A stretch of 37,264 nt of DNA, taken from IMG/VR virus record IMGVR_UViG_2778261068_000007, positions 1-37,264 of that record; one strand, written 5' to 3'. The notes below the pieces were generated by a model. That model saw nothing but the letters and a program-made list of their open reading frames with translations. It had not been told where the DNA came from and did not search any database. This document shows, in pieces, positions 1,234 to 37,264 of the stretch; positions within the stretch are counted from its first letter, which is position 1, and each line of letters starts with the position of its first letter. The DNA comes from a virus. Taxonomy: Duplodnaviria > Heunggongvirae > Uroviricota > Caudoviricetes. The position numbers and the translations under genes are program-made.

Positions 1234-2211
1234 TTACATTCCTCCCAAGGGATTAAACCTCACCGCATCCTGCAAGTAATCCGGCGCAAGATGGGCATAA
1301 ATCATCGTTGTCTGAATCTTTGCGTGCCCCAGAATTTTCTGGAGCGTCAGAATATTGCCGCCGTTCATCATGAAATGACTGGCGAAGGTGTGGCGCAGCG
1401 CATGAACAGCCTGGCCGTCAGGAACATCAGGTGCGACCGTTTTGATGACATCGCGAACCAATGGATAATCCAGCGTCGGAAACACCAGTTTCCCGCCCCG
1501 TTTTTTGATCTTTTCAAACAAACCTTCGGAGATTGGGACAGTACGGTTTTTACTATTCTTTGTTTTTGAAAAAGTGATTCGACAATGCAGAACGCGACGC
1601 TGCTCCAACGCCACTACCTCGCCCCATCGCGCCCCGGTCGACAAAAGGATTTCGACAGCCAGCCGTTCATCGGGATTTTCAGCTAGTGCATCCAGCAACT
1701 GAATACACTCAGACTTACTCAGATATCCCATTTCGCGCTCGTTAACCTTCATTCCTTTCAGGCCTTGAACGGGATTATCGTTAAGAAAATGGCCGGATGA
1801 GATGAGCGCAGTAAACATCGCGCTTAACGCCCCAATCTCTCGATTAATGGTGCTGGGCTGTATCCCCTGCTCTATCCTGGACACACGTAGCTCGGTGAGC
1901 ATCGTTGTATTAAGTTTATGCACGCACGGGTCATCCATTGCCTCACTCAAGCGCAGCAATTTAAGGCGCGTGTTATGCCCTGACTTCATTAGCTGGCCGT
2001 GGTATTTCCACCACAAGTCAATAAGCACTGACAGCGGACGGCGATCAATGGAGTTTCCTTTCCACTCATTGTTATGCTGTTGCGCCAGCACCCACCGCTC
2101 ATATAAAACTGCATCCGATTTCGTTTTAAATTTTTTACGAATGCGTTTGCCTTTACGCCCCTCCGGGCGCATGTCAAGAAGATACCCTCCCGGAATTGAT
2201 TTTATGCTCAT
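1234..2211 (-). CDS. int: Tyrosine integrase, P2 Int-like
   Basis: C-terminal catalytic region HALRHTFASHFMMNGGNILTLQKILGHAKIQTTMIYAHL; N-terminus MSIKSIPGG..RPEGRKGKRIRKKF matches remembered P2 Int (MAIKKLDDG..RPTGRNGKRIRRKF). Start placed at the internal ATG (2209-2211), not the longer ORF start at 2361. Confidence 0.9.
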   Translation of the reverse strand: MSIKSIPGGYLLDMRPEGRKGKRIRKKFKTKSDAVLYERWVLAQQHNNEWKGNSIDRRPLSVLIDLWWKYHGQLMKSGHNTRLKLLRLSEAMDDPCVHKLNTTMLTELRVSRIEQGIQPSTINREIGALSAMFTALISSGHFLNDNPVQGLKGMKVNEREMGYLSKSECIQLLDALAENPDERLAVEILLSTGARWGEVVALEQRRVLHCRITFSKTKNSKNRTVPISEGLFEKIKKRGGKLVFPTLDYPLVRDVIKTVAPDVPDGQAVHALRHTFASHFMMNGGNILTLQKILGHAKIQTTMIYAHLAPDYLQDAVRFNPLGGM

Positions 2212-2260
2212 TCGTGAAACCCCAGCGTTACAAGACCACCATGCCCCCAGCGTTCCATGA

Positions 2261-2569
2261 TTAGCCGGGCTGTGTGCCAGTCTTGCGGGGTTTTTGAGAA
2301 GGCGATGTGCTTTTTGGCCCATCAGGGGAGAGAGAGGGACTGATCTGCCCAGCAGCCTCATTCGTTTTTCCTGTCATAAGCCAATTCATGTACTTAAAAA
2401 AGCGAGGGTGATTAACAATCTTGATAAGCACTTCCCCCCCTATGTTTTCAATCCGCCCCGTTTCATAACGGCGCAAAGTGCCGATAGGCACATCAATCAG
2501 GCCGCAAAATTCTTCGCGCGTTAAATCCTCTGATTCACGAATCACTCTAATTTTTTCACCGATAAGCAT
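2261..2569 (-). CDS. Immunity repressor, P2 C-like HTH protein
   Basis: About 100 aa with HTH-like LTREEFCGLIDVPIGTLRRYETGR; sits between int and a divergent Cox-like gene as in P2; start placed at ATG 2567-2569 (the track ORF begins at an upstream GTG). Confidence 0.7.
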   Translation of the reverse strand: MLIGEKIRVIRESEDLTREEFCGLIDVPIGTLRRYETGRIENIGGEVLIKIVNHPRFFKYMNWLMTGKTNEAAGQISPSLSPDGPKSTSPSQKPRKTGTQPG

Positions 2570-2581
2570 TGACAGTGTTCC

Positions 2582-2627
2582 TATAAGTACACTAAGCTTG
2601 CGCACAAGGTGTACTTATAAGTACACC
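2582..2627. promoter_or_regulatory. Immunity-switch operator and divergent promoter region
   Basis: Perfect 20-bp palindrome ggtgtacttataagtacacc (2608-2627) plus an upstream copy of the half-site tataagtacac (2582-2592); TTGACA at 2569-2574; lies between the divergent repressor and Cox-like genes. Confidence 0.5.
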
Positions 2628-4994: not shown

Positions 4995-7817
4995 GTGGCA
5001 ACGGAGTACATCAGAGACTGGCAACAACCACGCCATGCAGTCGGTCGCGAGGGAACGGGGGAGCCTGTCCGCCCCTCCCTTCTTTCTTCCTGGCTGGATG
5101 CCTACCGGGCAGAGAACGAGCGCCGCCAGGAAATGGCTGATGCGGCGTTCTCCGCTGCACCACTGGGCAATCTGATTAATAAAAGCCTGGACGCACAGGA
5201 AAAACAGGACAAAGCCATCACACTGGCAAGAGAAGCCAGAAAGCAGGCACGCGGTGCGGTGGATGAAGCCATGGCCTCGCTGCGTCTGCTGCCGTCCTAT
5301 CTGCGTGATCCGCTTATCCGCCATCTCTCTTTCCTGCGCAAAAAACAGGAATCTGGCCGCCAGAAAGGCAAAAATAGCTGGCAGGCTGAACGCTACGCGC
5401 GCGGAAACCTGCGCAAAATATTCGAACGTCTGGACTGCACCGACCGTCGCTGGCTGACTCCGGGTTATCGCTCCCTTGCCGGACGTGAACGTCTGGACGA
5501 TTTGCTGTACTTGCCACAGCTCAACAAGCACCAGATACAGACGCTGGCCGTCATGACAGCGGCAATGTTCAGCAGCACCTTCGAAAAACTCTGCGATGAC
5601 TTTGGCGCGACCGACGGCGAGCTGACCATGGATATAACGCTGAAGGCGTATCAGATGCTGGCCCGCATGGCGTTACATCTGCACACGGTGCCGCCGCATT
5701 ATGACGCACTGACAACAGACAAAGACCGGAAGAACGAACCGGACACGGAACTGCTGCCGGGTGCAATCCTCCGCCTGACCTGTGCGGACTGGTGGAAACG
5801 CAAATTGTGGCTTTTACGTTGCGAATGGAGAGAGGAACAACTCCGCGCTGCCTGTCTGGTTTCCAGAAAAACATCGCCCTATCTGAGTCAGGACGCATTA
5901 AGTGAATTTCGCGCACAGCGCGAGAAAACACGCGATTTCCTGAAAAGTTTCATGCTGGAAAATGAAGACGGGTTCACGATTGATCTCGAGACGGTGTATT
6001 ACGCGGGAGTAAGTAACCCGGTCCACCGTAAGGCAGAAATGATGGCCACCATGAAAGGGCTGGAACTTCTGGCCGAAGCCCGTGGCGACAAAGCGGTGTT
6101 TCTGACTGTCACCTGCCCGTCAAAATACCACGCAACAACGGAGAACGGTCATCCGAACCCCAAATGGAACGGGGCCACCATGCGCGACTCCAGCGATTAC
6201 CTGGTTAACACGTTTTTTGCGGCGGTCCGCAAAAAACTGAACCGCGACGGTCTGCGCTGGTATGGCATCCGCACGGTGGAGCCTCACCATGACGGCACCG
6301 TGCACTGGCATATGATGGTCTTTGCACACCCGGACGAGATTGAAACCATCGTGTCCCACGTCTGCGATATTGCCATTCAGGAAGACCGCCACGAGCTGGG
6401 CGATGACATAACTCCGCGTTTTAAGGCGGAGTACGTAGACGGCTCAAAAGGCACGCCAACCAGCTACATCGCCACCTACATCGGAAAGAACCTGGACAGC
6501 CGCGCCGTGGATGGCATCGACCCGAAAACGGGCAAGCCACGCGTTGACCACGAAACCGGAAAATCAATGGCAGAGAGCGTGGAACGCGCCATCGGCTGGG
6601 CGCGCCTTCACCGGGTCCGCCAGTTCCAGTTCTTTGGTATCCCTTCCCGTCAGGTGTGGCGTGAACTGCGTCGCCTTGCCAGCCAGATGGCACGCAACCC
6701 GGAAGGCCCGCAACGGCTGAAGGATGACGCAATGGACGCGGTTCTTGCTGCCGCTGATGCCGGATGTTTTGCCACCTACATAGAGAAACAGGGTGGCGTA
6801 CTTGTTCCACGCAAGGATTACCTGATTCGCACCGCCTACGACCTCGCAGAAGAGCTGAACGATTACGGCGAGCAAAGCGTACAGATTTACGGGATCTGGT
6901 CGCCACAAATCGGGGAATCTTCCCGCGTGTGCACGCACCCGGATAACTGGAAGCTGGTAAGACGTAAACCGGAAGCGGAAGACAGCGCCCGCGAAAATGG
7001 TTTTGACCTTCAGGGCGGCCCTGCCGCCCCTTGGACTCGTGGCAATAACTGTCCCCGTGTACAGGAAACGGACAACAACGGGACAGAACAGCCGGAAGAA
7101 CGGCCAGCACCGTGGCCGCAGCTTCCTGACGGCGTTGAAGTGAATGAATGGATGCGCTCACTGAAACGGCACGAACGCCGGGCGCTGATGCGTTCGCTGC
7201 GTGACAAACAGGCAAAAAACAGCAGTGATGAAATGCAGAGCTGGACACAGAGCCGCAAACAGCAGCGGCCTTTGCCTGATAACCACGAATTACTCGCTAA
7301 AGAATGGCGGGAGTCTGCCGAATCTCTCGGCCTGCATATCGGTGAACAACAGATGCTGCACCTGTTACGGGGCGGCAGTCTGTACGTTGACGGCAGCATC
7401 ATTGCGCCGCAGGGATATGAAATTGTACGTAAACCGGATACCCGACCGGACAGCCGAATCACGCGACTTTGGCAGCGCCTGAGTCGTAATCACAGCGTAA
7501 ACAGCACGGAAATCCGCCATAACCCGGTTTCCAGCTATCTGAAACAGCTCGGGGCATCAGACCCCGAAGCCGCCGCACGCCTGGCATCCACAATTCAGCA
7601 GGACCAGAACACCATGAAAACTCCCGTTACCGTGCTTTCTGACATGCTGCGCGCCATCCGTGACGCAGAGCACGCACAAAGATTCAATGAAACCACTGAA
7701 CGCGTCCGCCGCAAAGCAGATCTGTTGCAGGGTGGACTAACCAGTGAAAACAAAAAACAGACAAAAACGGGATTCACAAATCCCGTAAATGAGCAAAAAA
7801 CGCGCCGCGATATATGA
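4995..7817 (+). CDS. A: Rolling-circle replication initiator, P2 gpA-like
   Basis: 940-aa ORF with HWHMMVFAHPDE (HUH-type motif) and YHATTENGHPNPKWNG...TFFAAVRKKL...GLRWYGIRTVEPHHDGTVHWH; GTG start at 4995 with RBS ggag 8 nt upstream (alternative ATG at 5133); longer than remembered P2 A (about 760 aa). Confidence 0.9.
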   Translation: MATEYIRDWQQPRHAVGREGTGEPVRPSLLSSWLDAYRAENERRQEMADAAFSAAPLGNLINKSLDAQEKQDKAITLAREARKQARGAVDEAMASLRLLPSYLRDPLIRHLSFLRKKQESGRQKGKNSWQAERYARGNLRKIFERLDCTDRRWLTPGYRSLAGRERLDDLLYLPQLNKHQIQTLAVMTAAMFSSTFEKLCDDFGATDGELTMDITLKAYQMLARMALHLHTVPPHYDALTTDKDRKNEPDTELLPGAILRLTCADWWKRKLWLLRCEWREEQLRAACLVSRKTSPYLSQDALSEFRAQREKTRDFLKSFMLENEDGFTIDLETVYYAGVSNPVHRKAEMMATMKGLELLAEARGDKAVFLTVTCPSKYHATTENGHPNPKWNGATMRDSSDYLVNTFFAAVRKKLNRDGLRWYGIRTVEPHHDGTVHWHMMVFAHPDEIETIVSHVCDIAIQEDRHELGDDITPRFKAEYVDGSKGTPTSYIATYIGKNLDSRAVDGIDPKTGKPRVDHETGKSMAESVERAIGWARLHRVRQFQFFGIPSRQVWRELRRLASQMARNPEGPQRLKDDAMDAVLAAADAGCFATYIEKQGGVLVPRKDYLIRTAYDLAEELNDYGEQSVQIYGIWSPQIGESSRVCTHPDNWKLVRRKPEAEDSARENGFDLQGGPAAPWTRGNNCPRVQETDNNGTEQPEERPAPWPQLPDGVEVNEWMRSLKRHERRALMRSLRDKQAKNSSDEMQSWTQSRKQQRPLPDNHELLAKEWRESAESLGLHIGEQQMLHLLRGGSLYVDGSIIAPQGYEIVRKPDTRPDSRITRLWQRLSRNHSVNSTEIRHNPVSSYLKQLGASDPEAAARLASTIQQDQNTMKTPVTVLSDMLRAIRDAEHAQRFNETTERVRRKADLLQGGLTSENKKQTKTGFTNPVNEQKTRRDI

Positions 7818-7865
7818 AGCGCGCACAAAACAGGCAAAAGCGGGATTTAAAAATCCCGTAAACGA
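7762..7865. repeat. Two 31-bp direct repeats, each holding a 7-bp-stem hairpin (cgggatt-N4-aatcccg)
   Basis: caaaaacgggattcacaaatcccgtaaatga (7762-7792) and caaaagcgggatttaaaaatcccgtaaacga (7835-7865) bracket the A stop codon (7815-7817) and a GC-rich near-palindrome cgcgccgcgatatatgaagcgcgc. Confidence 0.6.
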
Positions 7866-7893
7866 TTAATTAATCAACATAAGGAAAATCGAC

Positions 7894-8853
7894 ATGAAAA
7901 TTTGCATCGACGACGGCTCCACCAACATCAAGCTGGCATGGACTGAGAACGGCGAACGCCGCAACGCCATCAGCCCGAACAGCTTCAAGTCGGAATGGTC
8001 TGCGCCGTTCGGTGGCACACAGCCCGCGAACTACATGCTTGATGGCGTGCGCTATGGTTTTGATCCGGTCAGCGATCGCTTTGTCCAGACGACCGACACG
8101 CAATACCAGTACAGCGATGTGAATGTCATTGCCATTCATCACGCGCTGGTCAAATCAGGTATCACACCACAGGAAGTGGACGTGGTTGTCACTCTGCCAC
8201 TGAGCGAGTATTTCGATACAAACGCACAGCCGGACATGGCCAACATCAACCGCAAAAAAGCGAATGTCCTGCGCCCTGTGGAGTACCAGAACGGTGAAGC
8301 ATTCACTATCCGCAACGTGCGGGTTATGCCTGAATCCATTCCGGCTGGCTTTAAGGCACTGGCTGACATGAGTCCGTTTGAATCCCTGCTGATTGTGGAT
8401 TTAGGCGGAACAACGCTGGATGTGGCAAAGGTTCAGGGGCAACTGGCAGGCATCAGCCAGGTGTTTTGCGATCCACACGTAGGCGTTTCCCTGATGGCTG
8501 ATGCCGTGCTGTCGGTGATGGCCACTAACGGTATGCGTACCAGTCACCACATCGCCAATACCATTATTGAGCACCGTCACGATGAAGCCTGGCTACGCCA
8601 GCACATTCACAATGACGCGCATTACAACAGCCTGATGGCGGTTATTCGTGAAAAGGAGGAGACACTAAAACAACGCGTGATCCGCGCACTCGCGGGCTTT
8701 TCGGGTTACGGGCGGGTGCTGGTTGTCGGTGGAGGAGCGGAGATTGTGGCACCCGCAGTCCGTGAAATCTATGGAGTCAATGCGAATTTCATCACAGACG
8801 GGGTGCCACAGTTTGCTCTGGTTAACGGTCTGTACGCTATGGATAAGGAGTAA
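7894..8853 (+). CDS. parM: Actin-like segregation ATPase, ParM/StbA family
   Basis: N-terminus MKICIDDGSTNIKLAW closely matches remembered R1 ParM (MLVFIDDGSTNIKLQW); further shared blocks ISPNSFK.EW, YSDVNV.A.HHAL, LPL.E, VDLGGTT; RBS aaggaaaa upstream. Confidence 0.8.
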   Translation: MKICIDDGSTNIKLAWTENGERRNAISPNSFKSEWSAPFGGTQPANYMLDGVRYGFDPVSDRFVQTTDTQYQYSDVNVIAIHHALVKSGITPQEVDVVVTLPLSEYFDTNAQPDMANINRKKANVLRPVEYQNGEAFTIRNVRVMPESIPAGFKALADMSPFESLLIVDLGGTTLDVAKVQGQLAGISQVFCDPHVGVSLMADAVLSVMATNGMRTSHHIANTIIEHRHDEAWLRQHIHNDAHYNSLMAVIREKEETLKQRVIRALAGFSGYGRVLVVGGGAEIVAPAVREIYGVNANFITDGVPQFALVNGLYAMDKE

Positions 8854-8859
8854 CCCTCC

Positions 8860-9171
8860 ATGGCGACATTAACCAGAAGAATAAGTTTCTATCTGAAGCC
8901 AGCCGCCGTCAAGAACGAAGGCAAAGCATGCGCCTGGCTGGACAGCCTTACACCAGAAGCCCGCAAAAGCGGCCAACGCGTGGCTTTTCTGGCCGGGCTG
9001 GCACTTCTGAAAATGAATCCGGCAGAGGCTTACCGACTGGCTGCATGGGCTGATGATGAGGCGTTATCAGTGACACAAACCAGGGCAGAACGCCACATGT
9101 TACAGCCAGCGCCCACCGCACAGATAACCAGTCAGATAGCTGGAAATATCCGGGCGTTATTTCCCGAATAA
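8860..9171 (+). CDS. parR: ParR/StbB-like centromere-binding adaptor
   Basis: 103 aa immediately downstream of parM with RBS aaggag; RRISFYLKP...AWLDSLTPEARKSGQRVAFLAGLALL...IRALFPE parallels remembered ParR (RTIAFKLNP...DTLDSIPQGERSRLNRAALTAGLALY...LRSLFPKE). Confidence 0.65.
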   Translation: MATLTRRISFYLKPAAVKNEGKACAWLDSLTPEARKSGQRVAFLAGLALLKMNPAEAYRLAAWADDEALSVTQTRAERHMLQPAPTAQITSQIAGNIRALFPE

Positions 9172-9234
9172 CACAACATCAGGGCGCATCCGCCCTGATG
9201 ACTTTAATCCGGGAACATAAACAAGGGGGACACA

Positions 9235-9576
9235 ATGCAACACATTGACAGAGAAAAAGCGCAGCGACTGATTGAGCGGATGGAAGCGCTGGCGAAAGAA
9301 GAAAATGTCAACATCCAAAAAATAGCAGAATGTGGCCAGATAGTTCTTCGTCGTGAAAAAGACATCAAGCAACTGATGTCTGGCGAAACCAGCAAAACAC
9401 GGATTCCAGGCGAGAAAACGATTTATTGTAGCTTCTGCAATAAATCCCAGTACGAAGTCACAAAGGTGATTGCCGGACCGTCTGTTTACATCTGCAATGA
9501 GTGCGTGGATTTGTGCAATGAAATTATCAGGAGAGAAGCGACTGACCATGAAGAAGCGCGGAGATGCAACGATTAA
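9235..9576 (+). CDS. ClpX N-terminal zinc-binding-domain (ZBD)-only protein
   Basis: C-terminal half [40 protein letters not shown] is near-identical in pattern to the remembered ClpX N-domain ([40 protein letters not shown]), including the C4 zinc ligands; no AAA+ module follows. Confidence 0.7.
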
Positions 9577-9644
9577 GTCGGGTAATGATATTGAGCAGGC
9601 GACTCACTGGATGCCGATGCCAGAAGCGTTTCAGGAGGTTAACC

Positions 9645-9920
9645 GTGGCTAACCTGCAACTTGCCGTCAAAGGTGAATACTTCGATGCCATGATTCGCGG
9701 AGAGAAAACAGAAGAGTATCGCCTGGTTAATTCATACTGGTCTCGCCGTATATTGGATAAGAGCTATGATCGATTGATTATTACTAAGGGGTATCCGAAA
9801 CGCGACGATTTAAGCCGCAGAATTGATGTCCCATATGGGGGATATGAGATCAAGGTGATAACACATCCACATTTTGGACCAGAGCCAGTAAAAGTATTTG
9901 CTATTAAGTTGACTCAATGA
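9645..9920 (+). CDS. ASCH/PUA-like small protein
   Basis: GTG start at 9645 with strong RBS aggagg 6 nt upstream (track ORF starts at 9564); KGEYFDAMIRGEKTEEYR resembles ASCH-type motifs; family assignment tentative. Confidence 0.45.
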   Translation: MANLQLAVKGEYFDAMIRGEKTEEYRLVNSYWSRRILDKSYDRLIITKGYPKRDDLSRRIDVPYGGYEIKVITHPHFGPEPVKVFAIKLTQ

Positions 9921-10180
9921 CCGATACCACTAAGAAAAAGACGTTAAATAACATACATGAAAAGTATGATTATTTTACGGATACCGCTTGCTTGCTGACA
10001 TCTGAAGAACAAAAGATAGCCCAACTTTTAGGCGATGCATGGAACCTGTATTTAACATTGCCAGTTGAGCATCCAATGGGTAGAGATGAATTTTGCCGGG
10101 CAATTCATCATTGCCAAAATATGGTGTTGGCACGCCCTGCCATCAGGGCGCTGGCCAGTAAGGGGCAAGGCTATAAATAG
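9917..10180 (+). CDS. Hypothetical protein
   Basis: 87-aa ORF overlapping the upstream stop (ATGA), followed by a terminator. Confidence 0.4.
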   Translation: MTDTTKKKTLNNIHEKYDYFTDTACLLTSEEQKIAQLLGDAWNLYLTLPVEHPMGRDEFCRAIHHCQNMVLARPAIRALASKGQGYK

Positions 10181-10668: not shown

Positions 10669-11715
10669 TCAGGCTGTGGGCTGGGTGTCTAACAGTGCGT
10701 AAGGGTTAAAGCGGATCACCTCTTCGCCAAGCCAGTCATTGATGTGCTTCATGGCCTCCATGACGGGCATCAGCTCGTTAATTGCGTAAACCCGCGCGGC
10801 CTTCTCCACATCACCGAACGCACTTTTTTCACCCGGCATCGCCCCCATCAGTTGCGGTGGAACGCGGTGCGCAGCCAGCACATCATCACGGGATGCAGCC
10901 TTAACATTCATGAACTCATCCTTTGCGGTGATCTGCTGGAACGGCAAAATTTGCACCCCCTCTTTGCCCCCGTTGGGCGCATGAATGAGCACGTTTTTAA
11001 ACGCACCACCACCACGTGCACCCTGTAGCGTTTCTTTCAGGGAGTCCATGCTTTCGCGGTTTACCTGCGCTGCACCGATGTAGATGATGCACCCGGCGTG
11101 GGATCCGTTGTCGTAATACAGTTTTCTGAACATGTCCGCCGAATGAGACAGGCTGGCCGAGAGTAATGCGCCGAGATATTCCGGCATGCCGTAGATTTCC
11201 TGGTTAATGTCAGGATTCATCAGGTGGCACACTTTGCCAGGGCGAAACTGAAACGCGTCCTTACCATCCTGCACATACCACCATGATTCAAGATCGCTTC
11301 CGCGTCGCATGTATTTCGCCAGGGCGTGCCGTAATTTAAGCGGTTCGCCGAGCATATTGCTTCGAAGCTCAAGGAATGCGTTACCGAACACAAACCAGTC
11401 CAGCGCCAGCGCCGAGAAATCCTGCCGGGAAAGCAGCGGGTGCGGAATATAGCAGCCGAGCAATACATTGCGCTTAAAGTAAAGCGCAGACTGATGCCAG
11501 GACGTTTGCCGGGCAGCTCTTGCCAGACCGTACCAGTCCACCGGGGTTTCATACCATCGCCCGTTATCGGCACAGTACATATTGTCCAGTAAATCATGCC
11601 CGGTCAGGCGGTAAGGGCCGTCAAATGTGAATGCACTGAGCGACGATTCTTTCCTGAGCGCATCAGCGAGATCAATGCGTGAACTCATGCGCACTTTTTT
11701 ATTTTTTCTGCTCAT
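10669..11715 (-). CDS. Q: Portal protein, P2 gpQ-like
   Basis: 348 aa (P2 Q about 344 aa), immediately downstream of the terminase gene on the - strand. Confidence 0.85.
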   Translation of the reverse strand: MSRKNKKVRMSSRIDLADALRKESSLSAFTFDGPYRLTGHDLLDNMYCADNGRWYETPVDWYGLARAARQTSWHQSALYFKRNVLLGCYIPHPLLSRQDFSALALDWFVFGNAFLELRSNMLGEPLKLRHALAKYMRRGSDLESWWYVQDGKDAFQFRPGKVCHLMNPDINQEIYGMPEYLGALLSASLSHSADMFRKLYYDNGSHAGCIIYIGAAQVNRESMDSLKETLQGARGGGAFKNVLIHAPNGGKEGVQILPFQQITAKDEFMNVKAASRDDVLAAHRVPPQLMGAMPGEKSAFGDVEKAARVYAINELMPVMEAMKHINDWLGEEVIRFNPYALLDTQPTA

Positions 11716-13466
11716 CAGAACTCCATAACCGTGAAACGCTCGTTTTCTCCTTCGCCGCCAATCGGTTCGTTAATGACAGCAAGCATGGTTGCCCACGCAA
11801 GGTCGCCGTGGCTGATCCCCCTCGCGCGGTCCGTTTCGTAAGTGATAAAGCCGCCCGGTGTTTTCACCTTACGCACGGCGTTAAAGGCCGCGACCAGCTC
11901 CCGTTCGGCGCGATCGTATTCCCAGCGCCCGGCACGCATTATTTGCAGCATTTTCAGTACCAGCGACCGTTTTGATGACAGCGTGAAGGTGTACGGAATA
12001 GCAGCAGGGAAAAACCGTTTCACTATCTGATAAACAGCCTCCCCGTTCCCGCCCGTCACATCAATGCCGATGTGTTCCACGTTGTAGCGATACGTAAACT
12101 CTTCAATGACTCTGGCCTGTTCTTCAAACTCCAGCCCCTGAACGCGTCGCGTCTCCACCGTTCGAAAACGGCCACCAGGAACAGCCGGAGGAACCACCAC
12201 GGACACTGCGCCGCTGTCGCCGTTTCCACTGCTGCCGTTTGCGTCATATCCAATCCATACCGGACGATTCCCCATCGGGCGGGGAGCAAAAGGTTTCCAG
12301 TCTTTCCAGTCGTCGTATCCGTCAACGCCGCAGCCAATCAGGATATTCAGGTTAAATGCCGATTCCCCTTCGCGGACAAATTCACACATATAGAGATTGA
12401 GGAACTCGTCTTCGGTGTTTTCATCACGAATTTCATCAATATCGGTGTGTTTCCAGCCGTGATTAACCACATCTTCCAGCGTGACAATCTGCCGCCACGT
12501 CCGGTCAGGGCAGATAAGCCCGTTATGCAGCGTTTTCCAGTCCACAGAAAAACGCTGGCGTTTATGCGTGGCCTTTTTCTCGTTCCAGCGGTCGCCGTTC
12601 CAGTAGGCGTATGCCTCGTGCGTTTCGGTGGATGGCGTGGAGAAGTAGGTGCGCCGCAGTCCGCTGAGGGTTGCCATAGCGCCAGCCACCTTGCGCAGTT
12701 CAGCAAAGCGACTGACCCAGAAAAATTCATCAAAATAAAAATTGCCCGTATAGGACTGTGCCGACGCAGCAGAAGTGCCGAGAAAATGCAGCTCTGCGCC
12801 GTTGGAGAGGATGATTTTATCGCCCCCTTTCAGCTCCACATCAACTTCAGCCGCGGCCTTCTGAATAATGCTTTTAAACTGGAACGCCTGACGACGCGAC
12901 GCAGACAAAAAAATCTGGTTACGCTGGTAAGGTTGCGCCACATCGTCACGCAGCGCCATCAGCAGCGCTTCCTGTGCAAAATACCAGGTCGCCCCAATCT
13001 GTCGGGATTTCAGGATCATCCTGTTACGTATCCCGGCTTCCCTGCAAAGGGTCAGGGAGTCAAACCAGCCCCGCTGATGCCACTCCAGCCTGCTGATGAT
13101 TTTTTCCCGCAGTGCGGCAATCTGTTCCGGCGTGAAATGATTTTTAATTTTTTTCGCCCGGCCTTTCTTTCCTGTGGCCGTCGCATCCGGCTGGCCATCA
13201 TGCAGTTTTTTAAGCTGCCGGGTCAGCAGGTCTATTTCCTTGAAGTCACCACCTGTTTTATTCTGTTTTTCAGTAAGCTGAATGAGGCGCGCATCGATGG
13301 ACTGCGTGACACGCTGCACGGGTGGCGTTTCATCCCACTGGTCGCGTTTTTTCCACGCATAAATCGTGTTCGGGTTTATTCCCATCAGACGTGATATTTC
13401 TGCGGGCGGGTAACCCTGCCAGTAAAGTTGCCGCGCACGCTGGCGCACAAAAGCGTCCTGAATCAT
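11715..13466 (-). CDS. P: Terminase large (ATPase) subunit, P2 gpP-like
   Basis: 583 aa (P2 P about 590 aa), divergent from the capsid operon as in P2. Confidence 0.85.
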   Translation of the reverse strand: MIQDAFVRQRARQLYWQGYPPAEISRLMGINPNTIYAWKKRDQWDETPPVQRVTQSIDARLIQLTEKQNKTGGDFKEIDLLTRQLKKLHDGQPDATATGKKGRAKKIKNHFTPEQIAALREKIISRLEWHQRGWFDSLTLCREAGIRNRMILKSRQIGATWYFAQEALLMALRDDVAQPYQRNQIFLSASRRQAFQFKSIIQKAAAEVDVELKGGDKIILSNGAELHFLGTSAASAQSYTGNFYFDEFFWVSRFAELRKVAGAMATLSGLRRTYFSTPSTETHEAYAYWNGDRWNEKKATHKRQRFSVDWKTLHNGLICPDRTWRQIVTLEDVVNHGWKHTDIDEIRDENTEDEFLNLYMCEFVREGESAFNLNILIGCGVDGYDDWKDWKPFAPRPMGNRPVWIGYDANGSSGNGDSGAVSVVVPPAVPGGRFRTVETRRVQGLEFEEQARVIEEFTYRYNVEHIGIDVTGGNGEAVYQIVKRFFPAAIPYTFTLSSKRSLVLKMLQIMRAGRWEYDRAERELVAAFNAVRKVKTPGGFITYETDRARGISHGDLAWATMLAVINEPIGGEGENERFTVMEF

Positions 13467-26070: not shown

Positions 26071-26099
26071 GATTTGTGCCTTTGAGCGGGAGATTCAAC

Positions 26100-26699
26100 G
26101 TGCTGATTGGCTATGTAAGGGTATCAACAAATGACCAGAACACGGATTTGCAACGCAATGCGCTCAATAGCGCAGGATGTGAACTGATTTTTGAAGATAA
26201 AATCAGCGGAACAAAGTCAGCCAGACCGGGATTGAAAAAACTGCTCAGAACACTGTCAGAAGGCGATACGCTGGTTGTCTGGAAACTGGACAGGCTGGGC
26301 AGAAGCATGAAACACCTGATCACACTGATTGAGGAATTACGGGAAAAAGGTGTCAATTTTCGTAGTCTGACGGACAGCATTGACACATCAACACCCATGG
26401 GGCGCTTCTTTTTTCACGTCATGGGGGCTTTAGCTGAAATGGAACGCGAACTGATAGTTGAACGTACCAGGGCAGGACTGGCAGCAGCCCGCGCACAGGG
26501 GCGCATTGGTGGGCGTCGCCCGAAACTGACAAAAGAGCAACATGAGCAAATAGCAAGGCTGATTAAAAACGGCCATGACAGAAAACAACTGGCCATAATT
26601 TACGGTATTGGTATATCGACGATTTATCGTTACCACCCCGCGGGAGAATCAACCGGAACAACAGAGAAGACCAGAGGAAACAAAAAACCGCTAATCTGA
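26100..26699 (+). CDS. Serine DNA invertase, Hin/Gin/Cin/Pin family
   Basis: LIGYVRVSTNDQNTDLQRNAL...LVVWKLDRLGRS...GRFFFHVMGALAEMERELIVERT...AAARAQGRIGGRRPKLT matches the remembered Hin sequence including the catalytic Ser region; GTG start 26100 with RBS gggag. Confidence 0.9.
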   Translation: MLIGYVRVSTNDQNTDLQRNALNSAGCELIFEDKISGTKSARPGLKKLLRTLSEGDTLVVWKLDRLGRSMKHLITLIEELREKGVNFRSLTDSIDTSTPMGRFFFHVMGALAEMERELIVERTRAGLAAARAQGRIGGRRPKLTKEQHEQIARLIKNGHDRKQLAIIYGIGISTIYRYHPAGESTGTTEKTRGNKKPLI

Positions 26700-33548: not shown

Positions 33549-33710
33549 GCAACTTAAATGTATTAACTCAGAACGGATCAACACACTCACAACATAGAGT
33601 CAATATAGCTGCTCGCTTTGTTCCAGCAAGGATGCCTATTTCTAAGGAAAAACAGAGCAGAAACATATGGTGTTTTTCTACCTGACATCAGGGGTGGTAA
33701 GAATCATGCT

Positions 33711-33740
33711 TTGATAACCAATTGATAACTATTATTATAT
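33711..33740 (+). promoter_or_regulatory. Candidate sigma70-type promoter for the PIN-domain gene
   Basis: TTGATA (33711-33716), about 17-18 bp spacer, then ATTATA/TTATAT; AT-rich intergenic region; RBS gagg before ATG 33774. Confidence 0.25.
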
Positions 33741-33773
33741 TAATCTAACACCATTGACATAGTTGAGGTTTGA

Positions 33774-35276
33774 ATGAACAAAAAGCTGTATTTATTCCCA
33801 GACTCAAACATTTTTCTACAATGCAAGGCCTTGACGCAGGTAAATTTTTCCGAGATTACTGCTTGTGATGAAGTATGTATCATTATTACAAGGCCCATTC
33901 AGCAAGAGATTGACCGCCAGAAAGGGCAAGGTAATTCCCGCCTATCCAAAAAAGCAAGGAAGGCTGCTAGCCTATTTAATCAAGTAGTTGATTCAACTGA
34001 CATGACTCTTGTTATTCGTGAACGCTCGCCGCGAGTTTTTCTTACCATGGATCTAAGCCTGAAACCATGTGAACAGTTATCTGAACAATTGGATTATCAG
34101 GAGGCCGACGATCGTTTTGTTGGTATTGCGGCAGGGTATTGCGCTGACGATCCAGATTCGGAGGTGGCAATCATTACCAATGATAGCGGTCCACGTTTTT
34201 CAGCAATAAAACATAATATAATCTGCTATAAAGTGCCTTCTTCATGGTTGCTTCCTGCTGAGCCAGATGAAAAGGATAAACAAATTAAATTGCTGGAAGC
34301 TAAGCTGAAGCAATTCACTCAGTCTATGCCCGATTTCAGCATTAAAGCAGCCGATGACGAGCAATTAAATATTGTACTTCCTTATTATACAGCTTTATCT
34401 GAATATGAAGTTGATAATTTGCTTTGTCAACTAACGGATGCATTCCCATTGGTTACAAACTTTGACAATGAACAAACTACCCCACAATCACTAGAAAAAA
34501 TCATCAAGTCATTTAGTCAACAGGAGTATTTCCCTGTATCAGCAGATGATATTTCTCTTTATAAAGAAAAACATTATCCACTTTGGAAAAAGCAGTGTGA
34601 AGAAATACTGAAAAACTGTCATACTCATATTAATCCGAAGGCAATAAAATACCCGCTGTCGTTTTTATTACAAAACACAGGTTATACTATCGCTGAACGT
34701 GCTGTGGTAACATTTACAGCAAAAGGAGATTTTCGTCTGTGTGGATTTAATTGGGAGATAATGGAAGAGCTGACTGAAAGCAAAAGGATTGACCTACCTT
34801 CAGCCCCTACCGCACCCAAAGGAAAATGGCGTAGTGTATGTGGCGTAACAGAAAGAATGCCTTACGCTTGGGGAGCTTTGGAAACACCGCTATCCAGTAT
34901 AATTTCAAAAGAAATTGGTCCTTTGTTATCTCTTACTCCAACAGAAAGGGATAAAAACGATTTTTATTATAAAGAAAAGAGAAATGTGCCAGTTCAAGTT
35001 GTATCGCTGGAATGCGAAGAGTGGCGTCATCAAGTCAAAGAAGAAATATTCCCGTTGTTCGTATATACAGCCAACAAACCAAAGAAAGTGAATGGTGCAA
35101 TTGAGGTGAGAGTTGATGCAAATAACCTTACCAATCCGGTCATTAAAACATTTAAATTAAAAATAACTATAGAAGAACATAGTGCATTTTCAACCATAAC
35201 AGAAATGGTGCAGACATACATTCAAGAGCAGAAGAAAAGACAGAAAAGTTCTATTAGCGCACAAATCAAAACATGA
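33774..35276 (+). CDS. PIN-domain protein with a roughly 350-aa uncharacterised C-terminal region
   Basis: N-terminal 150 aa carries the PIN acidic residues in order (LFPDSNIF, QQEID, EADDRF, IITNDSG); gene and flanks are AT-rich unlike the phage backbone; inserted between D and ogr. Confidence 0.6.
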   Translation: MNKKLYLFPDSNIFLQCKALTQVNFSEITACDEVCIIITRPIQQEIDRQKGQGNSRLSKKARKAASLFNQVVDSTDMTLVIRERSPRVFLTMDLSLKPCEQLSEQLDYQEADDRFVGIAAGYCADDPDSEVAIITNDSGPRFSAIKHNIICYKVPSSWLLPAEPDEKDKQIKLLEAKLKQFTQSMPDFSIKAADDEQLNIVLPYYTALSEYEVDNLLCQLTDAFPLVTNFDNEQTTPQSLEKIIKSFSQQEYFPVSADDISLYKEKHYPLWKKQCEEILKNCHTHINPKAIKYPLSFLLQNTGYTIAERAVVTFTAKGDFRLCGFNWEIMEELTESKRIDLPSAPTAPKGKWRSVCGVTERMPYAWGALETPLSSIISKEIGPLLSLTPTERDKNDFYYKEKRNVPVQVVSLECEEWRHQVKEEIFPLFVYTANKPKKVNGAIEVRVDANNLTNPVIKTFKLKITIEEHSAFSTITEMVQTYIQEQKKRQKSSISAQIKT

Positions 35277-35519
35277 GGGTGTACTCAAATAATACAATGC
35301 TATAGTAAATCTATAAGTGCATAACTATTTCCTGATCTTTTCCCAAAATAGATGACAGGATAAAAAACATTCCAATCATTTACAGGCTTTGGATAAATCT
35401 TATCAAAGCCTATTTCTTCAAGAGTTAAATCACCGCTTTTCGCTCGAAACGGACTGGCTGTTGGAGTATGAGCCAGAACAACTTAGAATAGCCCCTGCAC
35501 TACGTTAAGGGAGGTCGCT

Positions 35520-35780
35520 ATGTTCCGTTGTCCGCTTTGCCGCGCATCTGCCCGTATCCGCACCAGTCGTCCTGAAAATGATTCAAACACCGTGCGGCAA
35601 AAGTATTACCAGTGTAACAATCTAGAATGCGGCGTATGCTTCTCAACACTGGAAGCTTTCCATAAATTCACATCGAAACACGCCTCCGGCGTTCACTCTT
35701 CAGAAGGTATCCCGTGGCATGAGCTGCCAGCTTCACACAGGGGAAACAATCAGATGAGTTTGCCTTTGCCTCAAAATTAA
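35520..35780 (+). CDS. ogr: Late transcription activator, Ogr-like zinc finger
   Basis: MFRCPLCRASARIRTSRP...YYQCNNLECGVCFSTLEAF parallels remembered Ogr (MFHCPLCQHAAHARTSRY...YHQCQNVNCSATFITYESV); RBS aagggagg. Confidence 0.85.
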   Translation: MFRCPLCRASARIRTSRPENDSNTVRQKYYQCNNLECGVCFSTLEAFHKFTSKHASGVHSSEGIPWHELPASHRGNNQMSLPLPQN

Positions 35781-35840
35781 CAGGCAGAATTGCCGGAGTA
35801 ACAAAAAAGCGATAGATTACGCGCGGGTGCCTTTCGGCTA

Positions 35841-36053
35841 ATGGCTGGAGGGAATACCCAAAGGCCGGATGTGGAAAGGCCCCGGAAAACATCTCTGTTT
35901 AACCGAGGCCCTGACCATCTAACCTTAGCAAGTGATAGGTTAGCGCCTCCACAAAAAAGGAGCAAGCGCTATGTCGCAAAAATCGCTGATAGCCATCACG
36001 TTCTGCGTGACGGTAATCCTCATCATCTGGATGCTGCACGGTTCGCTGTGTGA
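35841..36053 (+). CDS. mok-like overlapping reading frame of the hok-type locus
   Basis: 70-aa ORF in another frame overlapping the start and most of the hok-like ORF, the same arrangement and size as mok. Confidence 0.35.
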   Translation: MAGGNTQRPDVERPRKTSLFNRGPDHLTLASDRLAPPQKRSKRYVAKIADSHHVLRDGNPHHLDAARFAV

Positions 36054-36111
36054 AATACGGATGAGCTTCTGGGGAGCGGAGTTTGCGGCGTTCTTACAGT
36101 GTAAGCAGTAA
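35971..36111 (+). CDS. hok: Hok/Gef-family type I toxin (46 aa)
   Basis: MSQKSLIAITFCVTVILIIWMLHGSLCEIRMSFWGAEFAAFLQCKQ: N-terminal TM helix then SLCEIR and AAF, as in remembered Hok (..[25 protein letters not shown]..); RBS aaggag 8 nt upstream; absent from the ORF track because under 60 aa. Confidence 0.7.
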   Translation: MSQKSLIAITFCVTVILIIWMLHGSLCEIRMSFWGAEFAAFLQCKQ

Positions 36112-36196
36112 GGAAACCGCGACGGGGGAGCAATCCCCCGTCAATCGGTTGCTAAGGCTGGCCGAAGTGGCACCCTATCCCATGGACACAAACAAG

Positions 36197-36232
36197 AAAA
36201 CCCGCAGCGTAAATACTGCGGGTTTTCTTTTT
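36197..36232 (+). terminator. Rho-independent terminator of the hok-like transcript
   Basis: aaaacccgcag-cgtaaata-ctgcgggtttt followed by CTTTTT. Confidence 0.6.
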
Positions 36233-36273
36233 GGTACCCTCACAAATGAGGGCACCATCCGTAAGCAATAGGC

Positions 36274-36330: not shown

Positions 36331-36528
36331 ATGATGCAAAATATACGATGCAAAAATTGCTATAAATTACTTGCCCGCGCCTCATTTCACCACATTGAAA
36401 TAAAATGTCCGCGTTGCAAAACCCTTAACCAGGTAACGAGAGCCATCGAGCCCCCCACACACATGAGGAGCTATGACCGTGGGGATCGCAATCCAGCACA
36501 AAACAGCCCATACCCCGGAATACACTAA
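36331..36528 (+). CDS. com: Mu Com-like zinc-finger protein (candidate translational activator)
   Basis: MMQNIRCKNCYKLLARASFHHIEIKCPRCKTLNQV parallels remembered Mu Com (MKSIRCKNCNKLLFKADSFDHIEIRCPRCKRHIIM); RBS aagagg 8 nt upstream; 3' end overlaps the methyltransferase start by 56 nt. Confidence 0.7.
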   Translation: MMQNIRCKNCYKLLARASFHHIEIKCPRCKTLNQVTRAIEPPTHMRSYDRGDRNPAQNSPYPGIH

Positions 36529-37264
36529 GATTTACCAGACTGACAATGCCACGCTCTGCTGTGGGAATGCACTGGAAATATTGCCGCTGATTGAGCCAGA
36601 AAGCATTGATGCCTTAATCACTGATCCGCCTTACAGCTCAGGGGCAACACACAAGGCCGGACGCACCAACCAGGGCAGCCACGCAAAATATCTGAACGGC
36701 GAGAGCCTTCACCGCTTTGATGGATTTGCGGGTGAAAATATGGATGCCCGTTCGTGGGCTTACTGGACACAATTATGGATGGCACAGGCATACCGCGCAG
36801 TCAGGCCGGGCGGTTATGCCCTGGTGTTTACTGACTGGCGGCAACTGCCTGCTTTAACCGATGCGTTTCAGGCCAGCGGCTTTACATGGCGTGGAATCAT
36901 TGCGTGGAACAAAGGGAGGGGGTCACGAACACCCCATACCGGGTATTTCCGGCATCAGTGCGAATACATCGTCTGGGGCAGTAAAGGCCATTTAGGTAAA
37001 TCGCCTTCGGGACCGTTCGACGGCTGCATGACGTTCCCGGTTATCCCGTCAAAGAAACTGCATCCGACCGGAAAACCAGAAGAGTTAATGGCGGAGCTGG
37101 TCAGGACTGCGAATAGAGGCGGAACAGTCCTTGATCCTTTTATGGGGTCAGGGACAACGGGTATTGCAGCACTGAAAGCAGGACGCAAATTTATTGGTAT
37201 AGAAACCAGTGATCATTATTTTGATGTAGCAACACAACGGCTCAAAACGGCGATCGAACCATAA
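36473..37264 (+). CDS. DNA methyltransferase, N6-adenine or N4-cytosine, beta-class
   Basis: Catalytic motif ITDPPYSS precedes the AdoMet-binding motif DPFMGSGTT (beta-class order); start overlaps the end of the Com-like gene; alternative GTG start at 36479. Confidence 0.85.
   Translation: MTVGIAIQHKTAHTPEYTKIYQTDNATLCCGNALEILPLIEPESIDALITDPPYSSGATHKAGRTNQGSHAKYLNGESLHRFDGFAGENMDARSWAYWTQLWMAQAYRAVRPGGYALVFTDWRQLPALTDAFQASGFTWRGIIAWNKGRGSRTPHTGYFRHQCEYIVWGSKGHLGKSPSGPFDGCMTFPVIPSKKLHPTGKPEELMAELVRTANRGGTVLDPFMGSGTTGIAALKAGRKFIGIETSDHYFDVATQRLKTAIEP

Follow-up and report, generated by a model that had tools for sequence, protein, structure and literature searches.

The DNA analysed in this study is a stretch of 37,264 nucleotides, IMG/VR record IMGVR_UViG_2778261068_000007, which is called the window below. 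The subject is a pair of genes, parM and parR (together parMR), that it carries immediately downstream of the replication gene gpA. The window is a P2-like prophage of the P88 type (Peduoviridae, Xuanwuvirus) and contains an integrase. Its DNA is 93-94% identical to that of Escherichia phage P88, with 93.8% over positions 7600-9300, and the protein identities to P88 are 95% for gpA, 97% for ParM, 100% for Q, and 98% for P. The gene order of the window is that of the P88 annotation, and the element has the characters of Xuanwuvirus and the P88-like Peduoviridae. The P2-type head, lysis, and tail genes come after the terminase. Judged by its sequence, the cassette made up of parMR and two upstream repeats is a type II (ParMRC-type) partition system, which forms a phage-specific clade and belongs to the replication module of P88-like and other P2-like temperate phages. 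The coordinates of the features are collected in Table 1.

A sequence-only reading of this DNA had named a ParM/StbA-type gene followed by a ParR-like gene, and had left the ATP-binding residues of ParM to be checked. Both genes were borne out. ParM, whose N-terminus is MKICIDDGSTNIKLAW, matches the two Pfam ParM domains over their full lengths (StbA_N, E 7e-82; ParM C-terminal domain, E 1e-66). Its residues 2-316 align with the crystal structures of R1 ParM (1mwk, E 4e-92) at approximately 52% identity, and the identity to plasmid ParMs is likewise approximately 52%. The alignment to R1 ParM showed that the ATP-binding residues are conserved and that the actin-fold motifs are present. The nucleotide-binding motifs are intact, with identical or conservative residues: DDGSTNIK (phosphate-1), PESIPAG with the catalytic glutamate E147, DLGGTTLD (phosphate-2, D169), and GGGAE (adenosine motif). 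The same motif columns are invariant among eight phage-type ParMs. The ratio of nonsynonymous to synonymous substitution rates (dN/dS) of parM was 0.056 against P88 and ranged from 0.056 to 0.08, whereas that of gpA was looser (0.13). parM is under strong purifying selection.

The parR gene starts 6 nt past the parM stop codon. Its product matches the Pfam family PF10784 (E 2e-24, residues 6-75) and the PHROG 'partition protein' family phrog_2515 (E 5e-55). The layout of ParR was read from alignments of 16 close homologues together with distant ones. A conserved N-terminal domain (residues 1-67), which holds the strand TRRISFYLKP, is followed by a hypervariable linker rich in Pro, Ala, and Gln (residues 68-90) and then by a conserved C-terminal motif, NIRALFPE; the last 10-15 residues are SQIAGNIRALFPE. 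In the alignment of the 16 close homologues, this tail is kept across alleles in which the linker is hypervariable. The C-terminus also aligns with the C-termini of R1-type, IncI, and IncL/M ParRs and shares an invariant Asn with them. The conserved tail is thus the probable counterpart of the ParM-binding tail of plasmid ParRs. We also considered that the phage ParR might have no ParM-binding tail, its ..LFPE being like an internal motif of R1 ParR; this was ruled out, because the C-termini align with those of real plasmid ParRs. The dN/dS of parR was 0.23-0.44, looser than that of parM, and the changes were mostly in the linker. A sequence search of the PDB with ParR gave no match. The AlphaFold model of the ParR monomer was of low confidence (predicted local distance difference test, pLDDT, 54.6), with no strand in residues 1-16 and a helix predicted at residues 86-100. 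A poor monomer model may be expected for an obligate dimer.

Paired hairpin repeats had been described ahead of the cassette from the sequence. Two palindromic repeats are indeed present there, but the first of them lies inside the end of gpA: repeat 1 falls within the last codons of the gene (stop at 7817), and repeat 2 within the 76 bp that separate gpA from parM. The two units are 42 nt long, lie in direct orientation at a spacing of 73 bp (approximately 7 helical turns), and share 86% identity; each holds a perfect 18-bp palindrome, CGGGATT-N4-AATCCCG. This palindrome occurs twice in the window, with 0.07 copies expected by chance, and none of 100 shuffles reached two. At the proximal site, only the central 4 nt vary among five relatives. 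Both sites are retained in 54 of the 74 P88-like loci in IMG/VR, a scan that gave only near-identical P88-like loci and no further lineages. A pair of GGG-N10-CCC sites, spaced 71-73 bp and placed at approximately -125 and -52 from the parM ATG, was found at 11 of the 15 phage-type loci and at none of the 47 plasmid-type loci. Even the diverged Hafnia and Plesiomonas prophages keep the GGG-N10-CCC pair and a spacing of 72-73 bp. In Hafnia the distal site lies within a different upstream open reading frame (ORF), and this indicates that the site arrangement is independent of gpA coding.

The sites and ParR vary together. The Serratia/Enterobacter subclade has another inverted-repeat layout in place of the GGG-N10-CCC pair, and its ParR strand reads NRKIS, compared with TRRIS in the window. 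Because of this covariation with the N-terminal strand of ParR, the two palindromes are likely to be the ParR binding sites, and we predict that they form a minimal centromere (parC) of unusual architecture. Together with the domains, the motifs, the gene order, and the ParR tail, these lineage-specific upstream repeats support the earlier suggestion of a complete parC-parM-parR-type module. In the prophages of Serratia sp. BIGb0163 and Enterobacter ludwigii (7870-7975), there is a long inverted repeat whose arms, GAAATAGAAAAATG and CATTTTTCTATTTC, are separated by 26-28 nt. At the E. ludwigii locus the inverted repeat is flanked by GGGAAC/GTTCCC half-sites approximately 60 bp apart, and the Serratia and Enterobacter loci have the left-hand CAAAAA(C/T)GGGAAC in common with the sites of the window. 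We also tried to read the A-tracts at 7745-7865 as iterons of approximately 11 bp. They are roughly helically phased, yet no iteron beyond the two 42-nt units was found, and this candidate was rejected. No Rfam family was matched anywhere in the window, hairpins included.

Table 1. Positions of the parMR cassette, its candidate sites and signals, and the neighbouring phage genes in the window
Feature	Position	Strand	Description
Tyrosine integrase	1234-2361		Pfam Int_N and Phage_integrase
C-type repressor	2261-2605		Left of gpA, with small early genes
gpA replication endonuclease	4995-7817	+	Rolling-circle initiator, 940 aa; Pfam Phage_GPA, E 3e-128; PHROG 'nicking at origin of replication'
Repeat 1 (distal candidate parC site)	7751-7792		Palindrome CGGGATT-CACA-AATCCCG at 7768-7785, 125 nt before the parM ATG
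Repeat 2 (proximal candidate parC site)	7824-7865		Palindrome CGGGATT-TAAA-AATCCCG at 7841-7858, 52 nt before the parM ATG
TTAATCAA motif and parM ribosome-binding site	7870-7889	+	Motif at 7870-7877; AAGGA at 7881-7885
parM	7894-8853	+	Actin-fold ATPase, 319 aa; Pfam StbA_N and ParM C-terminal domain
parR/stbB	8860-9171	+	Adaptor, 103 aa; Pfam Plasmid_stab_B (PF10784)
Hairpin ending the parMR unit	9177-9200		10 bp, GC-rich; -18.4 kcal/mol (+ strand), -22.5 kcal/mol (- strand)
Portal	10669-11715	opposite to cassette
Large terminase	11715-13466	opposite to cassette

gpA lies directly upstream of parMR, with which it probably shares an operon. The scan found no plus-strand terminator-like site between gpA and parM, and no sigma-70 consensus promoter upstream of parM at the scan threshold. 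This indicates that parMR is probably transcribed with the early replication operon. The motif TTAATCAA, approximately 17 nt before the parM ATG, is common to the window and to the Hafnia and Plesiomonas prophages, in which the intergenic DNA around it has diverged; a weak -10 element is one possible role, a binding site of another kind a second. As for gpA itself, the Pfam GPA core spans only residues 179-503 of the 940-aa protein. The C-terminal third is a lineage-variable extension, and gpA has 785-907 aa in the other parMR-bearing phages. The last approximately 20 codons of the gene also hold the distal palindromic site.

The distribution of the cassette was analysed in bacterial, phage, and plasmid collections. 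The 1.7-kb cassette stretch was present in 1353 of 5426 complete E. coli genomes (approximately a quarter), at 1519 places. RefSeq names the pair 'plasmid segregation protein ParM' and 'plasmid partitioning/stability family protein'. Among 50,697 phage records, this ParM family was found only in P88-like phages and in the phage-plasmid D6 (46.5% identity). More distant phage-borne pairs, with ParMs 53-62% identical to that of the window, were found in Hafnia, Plesiomonas, Serratia, and Enterobacter in the protein and genome collections. The same slot, gpA-parM-parR-variable genes-portal (A-parM-parR-cargo-Q), recurs in the prophages of these four genera. A tblastn survey of 63 loci showed that all ParMs at least 53% identical to that of the window are linked to gpA and that none at 52% or below is; gpA adjoined none of the 47 plasmid-type parM loci. 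In a neighbour-joining tree, all gpA-linked ParMs formed one clade inside the enterobacterial plasmid radiation, with hosts in E. coli, Salmonella, Hafnia, Plesiomonas, Serratia, and Enterobacter. In E. albertii NBRC 107761 (NZ_BBMY01000003.1), gpA and ParM are 95% and 97% identical to those of the window, and the portal (Q) and terminase (P) are 30% and 35% identical. The gpA-parMR block thus sits on a different P2-like head module, which indicates that it moves with the replication module by recombination. A plasmid of Apirhabdus apintestini (CP138907.1, 63% identity) was considered as a phage-plasmid and was ruled out, since it carries a Rep3-type initiator, ParA, and umuDC-like genes. In the stretch 5990-7270 of this plasmid, parM is frameshifted and has classic tandem iterons upstream (AGTTCTCAAAT, three exact copies and variants).

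The closest known systems are the R1-type ParMRC loci (StbA/StbB/parC) of IncF, IncI, and IncL/M plasmids. The phage cassette resembles them in the full-length ParM homology with all nucleotide-binding motifs, in a PF10784 ParR encoded directly after parM, in the tail motif ..N-x-x-x-L-F/I.., and in the repeated DNA elements immediately upstream of parM. It differs from them in several respects. The replicon is an integrating P2-like phage, whereas theirs is a low-copy plasmid. The phage ParR has 103 aa, compared with 116-147 aa, and has no counterpart of the segment that joins N-terminal domain and tail in the plasmid proteins. The candidate centromere consists of two 16-18-bp palindromes 73 bp apart, the first within the coding end of gpA, whereas the plasmids have arrays of tandem direct iterons of approximately 11 bp.

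In this study, we believe that the partition or positioning of replicating circular phage DNA, as a part of the replication module, is the best-fitting function of the cassette, and we consider it about equally likely to be right or wrong. P2-type replication yields monomeric circles. The parMR pair shares the strand of gpA and begins 76 bp beyond it. Following infection or induction, it would be switched on along with the early/replication operon, at the stage when gpA-driven rolling-circle replication makes monomeric circular phage genomes. ParR dimers would bind the two GGG-N10-CCC palindromes, 73 bp apart across the gpA stop codon. ParR would probably also autoregulate parMR, since the proximal site adjoins the translation start of parM. 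ParM filaments capped by ParR would then push the phage circles apart, and in this way the circles would be spread or positioned for efficient replication, expression, and packaging. Separation would also guard against loss at a cell division that falls in the extrachromosomal phase. The target would be the transient circular form and not a permanent plasmid prophage. With somewhat more reserve, we propose as a tentative reading that the cassette is a phage-specific ParMRC branch whose minimal two-palindrome centromere straddles the end of gpA, that it has co-diversified with the rolling-circle module, and that it segregates monomeric circles or the briefly excised prophage.

Two precedents speak, by analogy, in favour of the partition of phage circles. 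SrpMRC of the SXT/R391 integrative and conjugative elements (ICEs) is a ParM-type locus that is switched on only when the element is activated; it acts solely on the transient excised form, which replicates by rolling circle, and stabilises it (Carraro et al. 2015, PMC4489591). Like the phage cassette, it is a partition locus on a normally integrated element whose circle replicates from an HUH-type nickase, and it is linked to the excision/replication genes and strictly conserved in the SXT/R391 family. However, SrpM is distant from R1 ParM and SrpR has no recognisable ParR domain, whereas the phage proteins are close to R1 ParM and PF10784. The SXT/R391 elements are conjugative and not viral, and the function of srpMRC was shown by stability assays and electrophoretic mobility shift assays, whereas the phage cassette is known from sequence. 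The second precedent is AlpAC of the Corynebacterium glutamicum prophage CGP3, which is switched on early after prophage activation and without which phage DNA neither reaches its normal copy number nor replicates efficiently (Donovan et al. 2015, PMC4446434). Here too a prophage encodes an actin-like filament, AlpC, and an adaptor, AlpA, that binds repeats (alpS) upstream of the operon (PMC4446434; Forde et al. 2017, PMC5539076). There is no close homology between the two systems, however. The adaptor gene comes first in alpAC, the host is Gram-positive, the prophage is large and cryptic, and AlpC lacks the dynamic instability of ParM.

Several points weigh against the proposed handling of phage circles. 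Literature searches found no functional study of the cassette. Cells do not divide in SOS-induced lytic growth, and the gain from separating genomes at that stage is not obvious. We infer from the sequence that ParR binds the palindromes and that parMR is probably co-expressed with the replication operon, and TTAATCAA could serve as a private promoter active in lysogens. The ribbon-helix-helix fold predicted for ParR is not confirmed by the low-confidence monomer model. The layout of two palindromes differs from the tandem direct iterons upstream of plasmid parM; the parC of R1, with its ten tandem 11-bp iterons, is also unlike it. Two sites may also be too few for a ring- or helix-like ParR-DNA complex. 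In addition, the monophyly of the phage clade was only moderately supported (63 of 100 bootstraps).

The first alternative, also raised by the sequence-only reading, is a facultative plasmid prophage. Over many generations the phage would survive as a low-copy extrachromosomal circle, for instance where the host offers no free attachment site, and would thus have two modes of lysogeny. The idea is already in print: Rousset et al. (2022, PMC9122126) reported that approximately one quarter of P2-like phages carry a putative partition system, possibly permitting plasmid maintenance. The homology of the module to plasmid stabilisation systems fits with it, as does D6, a tailed temperate phage-plasmid with a StbA-type ParM of the same family (46.5% identity). 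A 34,461-bp circle of E. coli deposited as the plasmid pZ1323PEC0009-2 (NZ_CP148288.1) is a complete P88-like genome with integrase, gpA, parM, parR, and structural genes. It is the sole public record of a free circle that we found, and its source could be phage DNA after induction or excision, or a genuine episome; a lone free circle in an assembly may simply be induced phage DNA. Seven PLSDB records carry the cassette. Besides this circular whole phage, they comprise one small linear record, which is a degraded prophage fragment ridden with insertion sequences, and prophage-carrying records of 0.2-1.4 Mb.

The genomic evidence stands against a plasmid state. Of the 1519 places in complete E. 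coli genomes, 1517 are chromosomal, a distribution that speaks against plasmid life as a routine state, and every full element examined has an integrase. No plasmid-type Rep initiator was found among the early-region ORFs of the window, where gpA is the only initiator. The gpA of P2 belongs to a repressed early operon, and this also counts against the plasmid state. Other partition loci on phage-plasmids are ParAB of P1 and SopAB of N15. D6, P1, and N15 have a dedicated plasmid replicon and no integrase-based lysogeny, whereas the P88-like phages integrate and have gpA only. Plasmid maintenance is therefore not supported as the usual state, and we regard a dual-mode prophage as unlikely.

The second alternative is an exclusion or competition device expressed in the lysogen, in which ParR and/or ParM would disturb related phages or ParMRC plasmids through centromere or filament incompatibility. 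The cassette lies in the A-Q interval, where P2 has old and tin, and this interval is a documented defence hotspot (PMC9122126). ParR specificity is known to set plasmid incompatibility in other ParMRC families (PMC9426499), and TTAATCAA is a possible private promoter motif. The sequence-only reading had placed the pair among the accessory genes of this interval and suggested co-opted anti-phage cargo. The interval was correct, but the cassette occupies its conserved gpA-proximal part, and cargo is swapped only after parR. Homology among relatives breaks down downstream of parR, and cargo begins after the hairpin at 9177-9200. Neither ParM nor ParR had a PADLOC match. Unlike swapping cargo, the pair is conserved across genera, where it keeps its synteny with gpA and forms one clade, so the anti-phage cargo proposal was not sustained. 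Its own cis sites are conserved alongside it, as expected if the system acts on its own DNA. In a tblastn search of PLSDB (72,556 plasmids), nothing similar to the phage ParR was detected in true plasmids, which makes cross-reaction with plasmid centromeres unlikely. We consider an exclusion function improbable.

The cargo after parR has its own features. The first gene (9235-9576, plus strand) encodes 113 aa, which consist of an N-terminal part of approximately 60 aa and the C4 zinc finger of ClpX only (PF06689, E 9e-18). P88 and many of the E. coli copies have this gene, and other genes take its place in phiSM and 569R5. The protein could mimic or titrate the binding of adaptors or substrates to ClpX. 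The next ORF (9564-9920, plus strand) matches phrog_625 (unknown function) and overlaps a small ORF (9917-10180, plus strand) that matches phrog_13916, labelled 'DNA ligase', though it has just 87 aa. Neither of these two ORFs had a Pfam or PADLOC match.

The third alternative concerns the palindromes. They could be terminators or insulators that keep minus-strand transcription (antisense or late-operon read-through) out of gpA, and the true ParR site would then be elsewhere or lost. On the minus strand, a T-run follows each palindrome (7767-7786 and 7841-7858), and both score like intrinsic terminators for leftward transcription. Their stems have a stability of approximately -11 kcal/mol, with folding z-scores of -4 to -6 on the plus strand. 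However, the minus-strand z-scores are weak (-2.5 and -1.2), and the T-runs are missing at the equivalent Hafnia and Plesiomonas sites, although the GGG-N10-CCC motif and the 72-73 bp spacing persist there. Variation at the sites affects the centre and the inner stem without compensatory changes, a common example being GGGACT...AATCCC, so that frequent variants disrupt inner stem pairs. The uncompensated mismatches suggest a protein-binding palindrome with conserved outer half-sites and not a selected hairpin. The presence of the sites also covaries with the ParR N-terminal strand, and the motif has no further copy in the window. We give little credence to this explanation. Finally, it is extremely improbable that the cassette is a functionless relic, in decay since an old recombination between plasmid and phage: some copies are frameshifted or fused, such as that of phage 503458 (four tblastn pieces), and several clusters are truncated, but the dN/dS of parM is low, full-length ORFs occur in thousands of sequences, and the cassette is kept at the same position across at least six genera.

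Other parts of the window were also annotated. To the left of the integrase, the minus strand encodes a DUF1640-like coiled-coil protein (193-747) and an unknown protein of 166 aa (731-1231). Chromosomes of E. coli O145 and O103 carry the trio of these two genes and the integrase at 98.7% identity. A serine DNA invertase (26076-26699, plus strand; Pfam Resolvase and HTH_7) adjoins oppositely oriented ORFs at the position of the tail-fibre and tail-fibre-assembly genes in P88. This suggests an invertible host-range segment of the P2/Mu type. The right end of the prophage (33560-36243) carries ogr/delta, a 500-aa PIN-domain protein (33774-35276), and a hok/gef-type toxin locus; these gene names were taken from the RefSeq annotation of 97.9%-identical E. 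coli DNA. The likeness to E. coli prophages stops near 36243. Beyond it lies a type II DNA methyltransferase gene (36473-37264, plus strand; Pfam N6_N4_Mtase; PADLOC MTase_II, E 8e-63), whose ORF stops at the end of the window and which may be either a prophage gene or part of the adjoining DNA.

The cassette and the plasmid idea are already known from RefSeq annotation and the 2022 publication, and the phiSM paper (PMC6456863) lists the gene solely as a 'fitness' factor. As far as we found, the gpA-linked phage clade, the pair of palindromes that covaries with ParR, the boundary between cassette and cargo, and the strength of selection have not been described. Strong purifying selection in an integrating phage indicates that the cassette must do something. 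The remaining question is why a very common family of integrating phages keeps an actin-like segregation machine. If the P2-like phages used it to persist as plasmids, they would be dual-mode lysogens. If the cassette partitions phage circles, it would offer a tractable E. coli/P2-type case of integrating elements that need active partition in a brief extrachromosomal phase, an idea so far known from the SXT/R391 ICEs and one corynebacterial prophage. If segregation through the two palindromes proves correct, the P2-like phages would be the first known case of small temperate E. coli phages that depend on a cytoskeletal filament of their own to handle their genomes, and the capping of ParM filaments by ParR could be studied on a natural minimal centromere of two sites.

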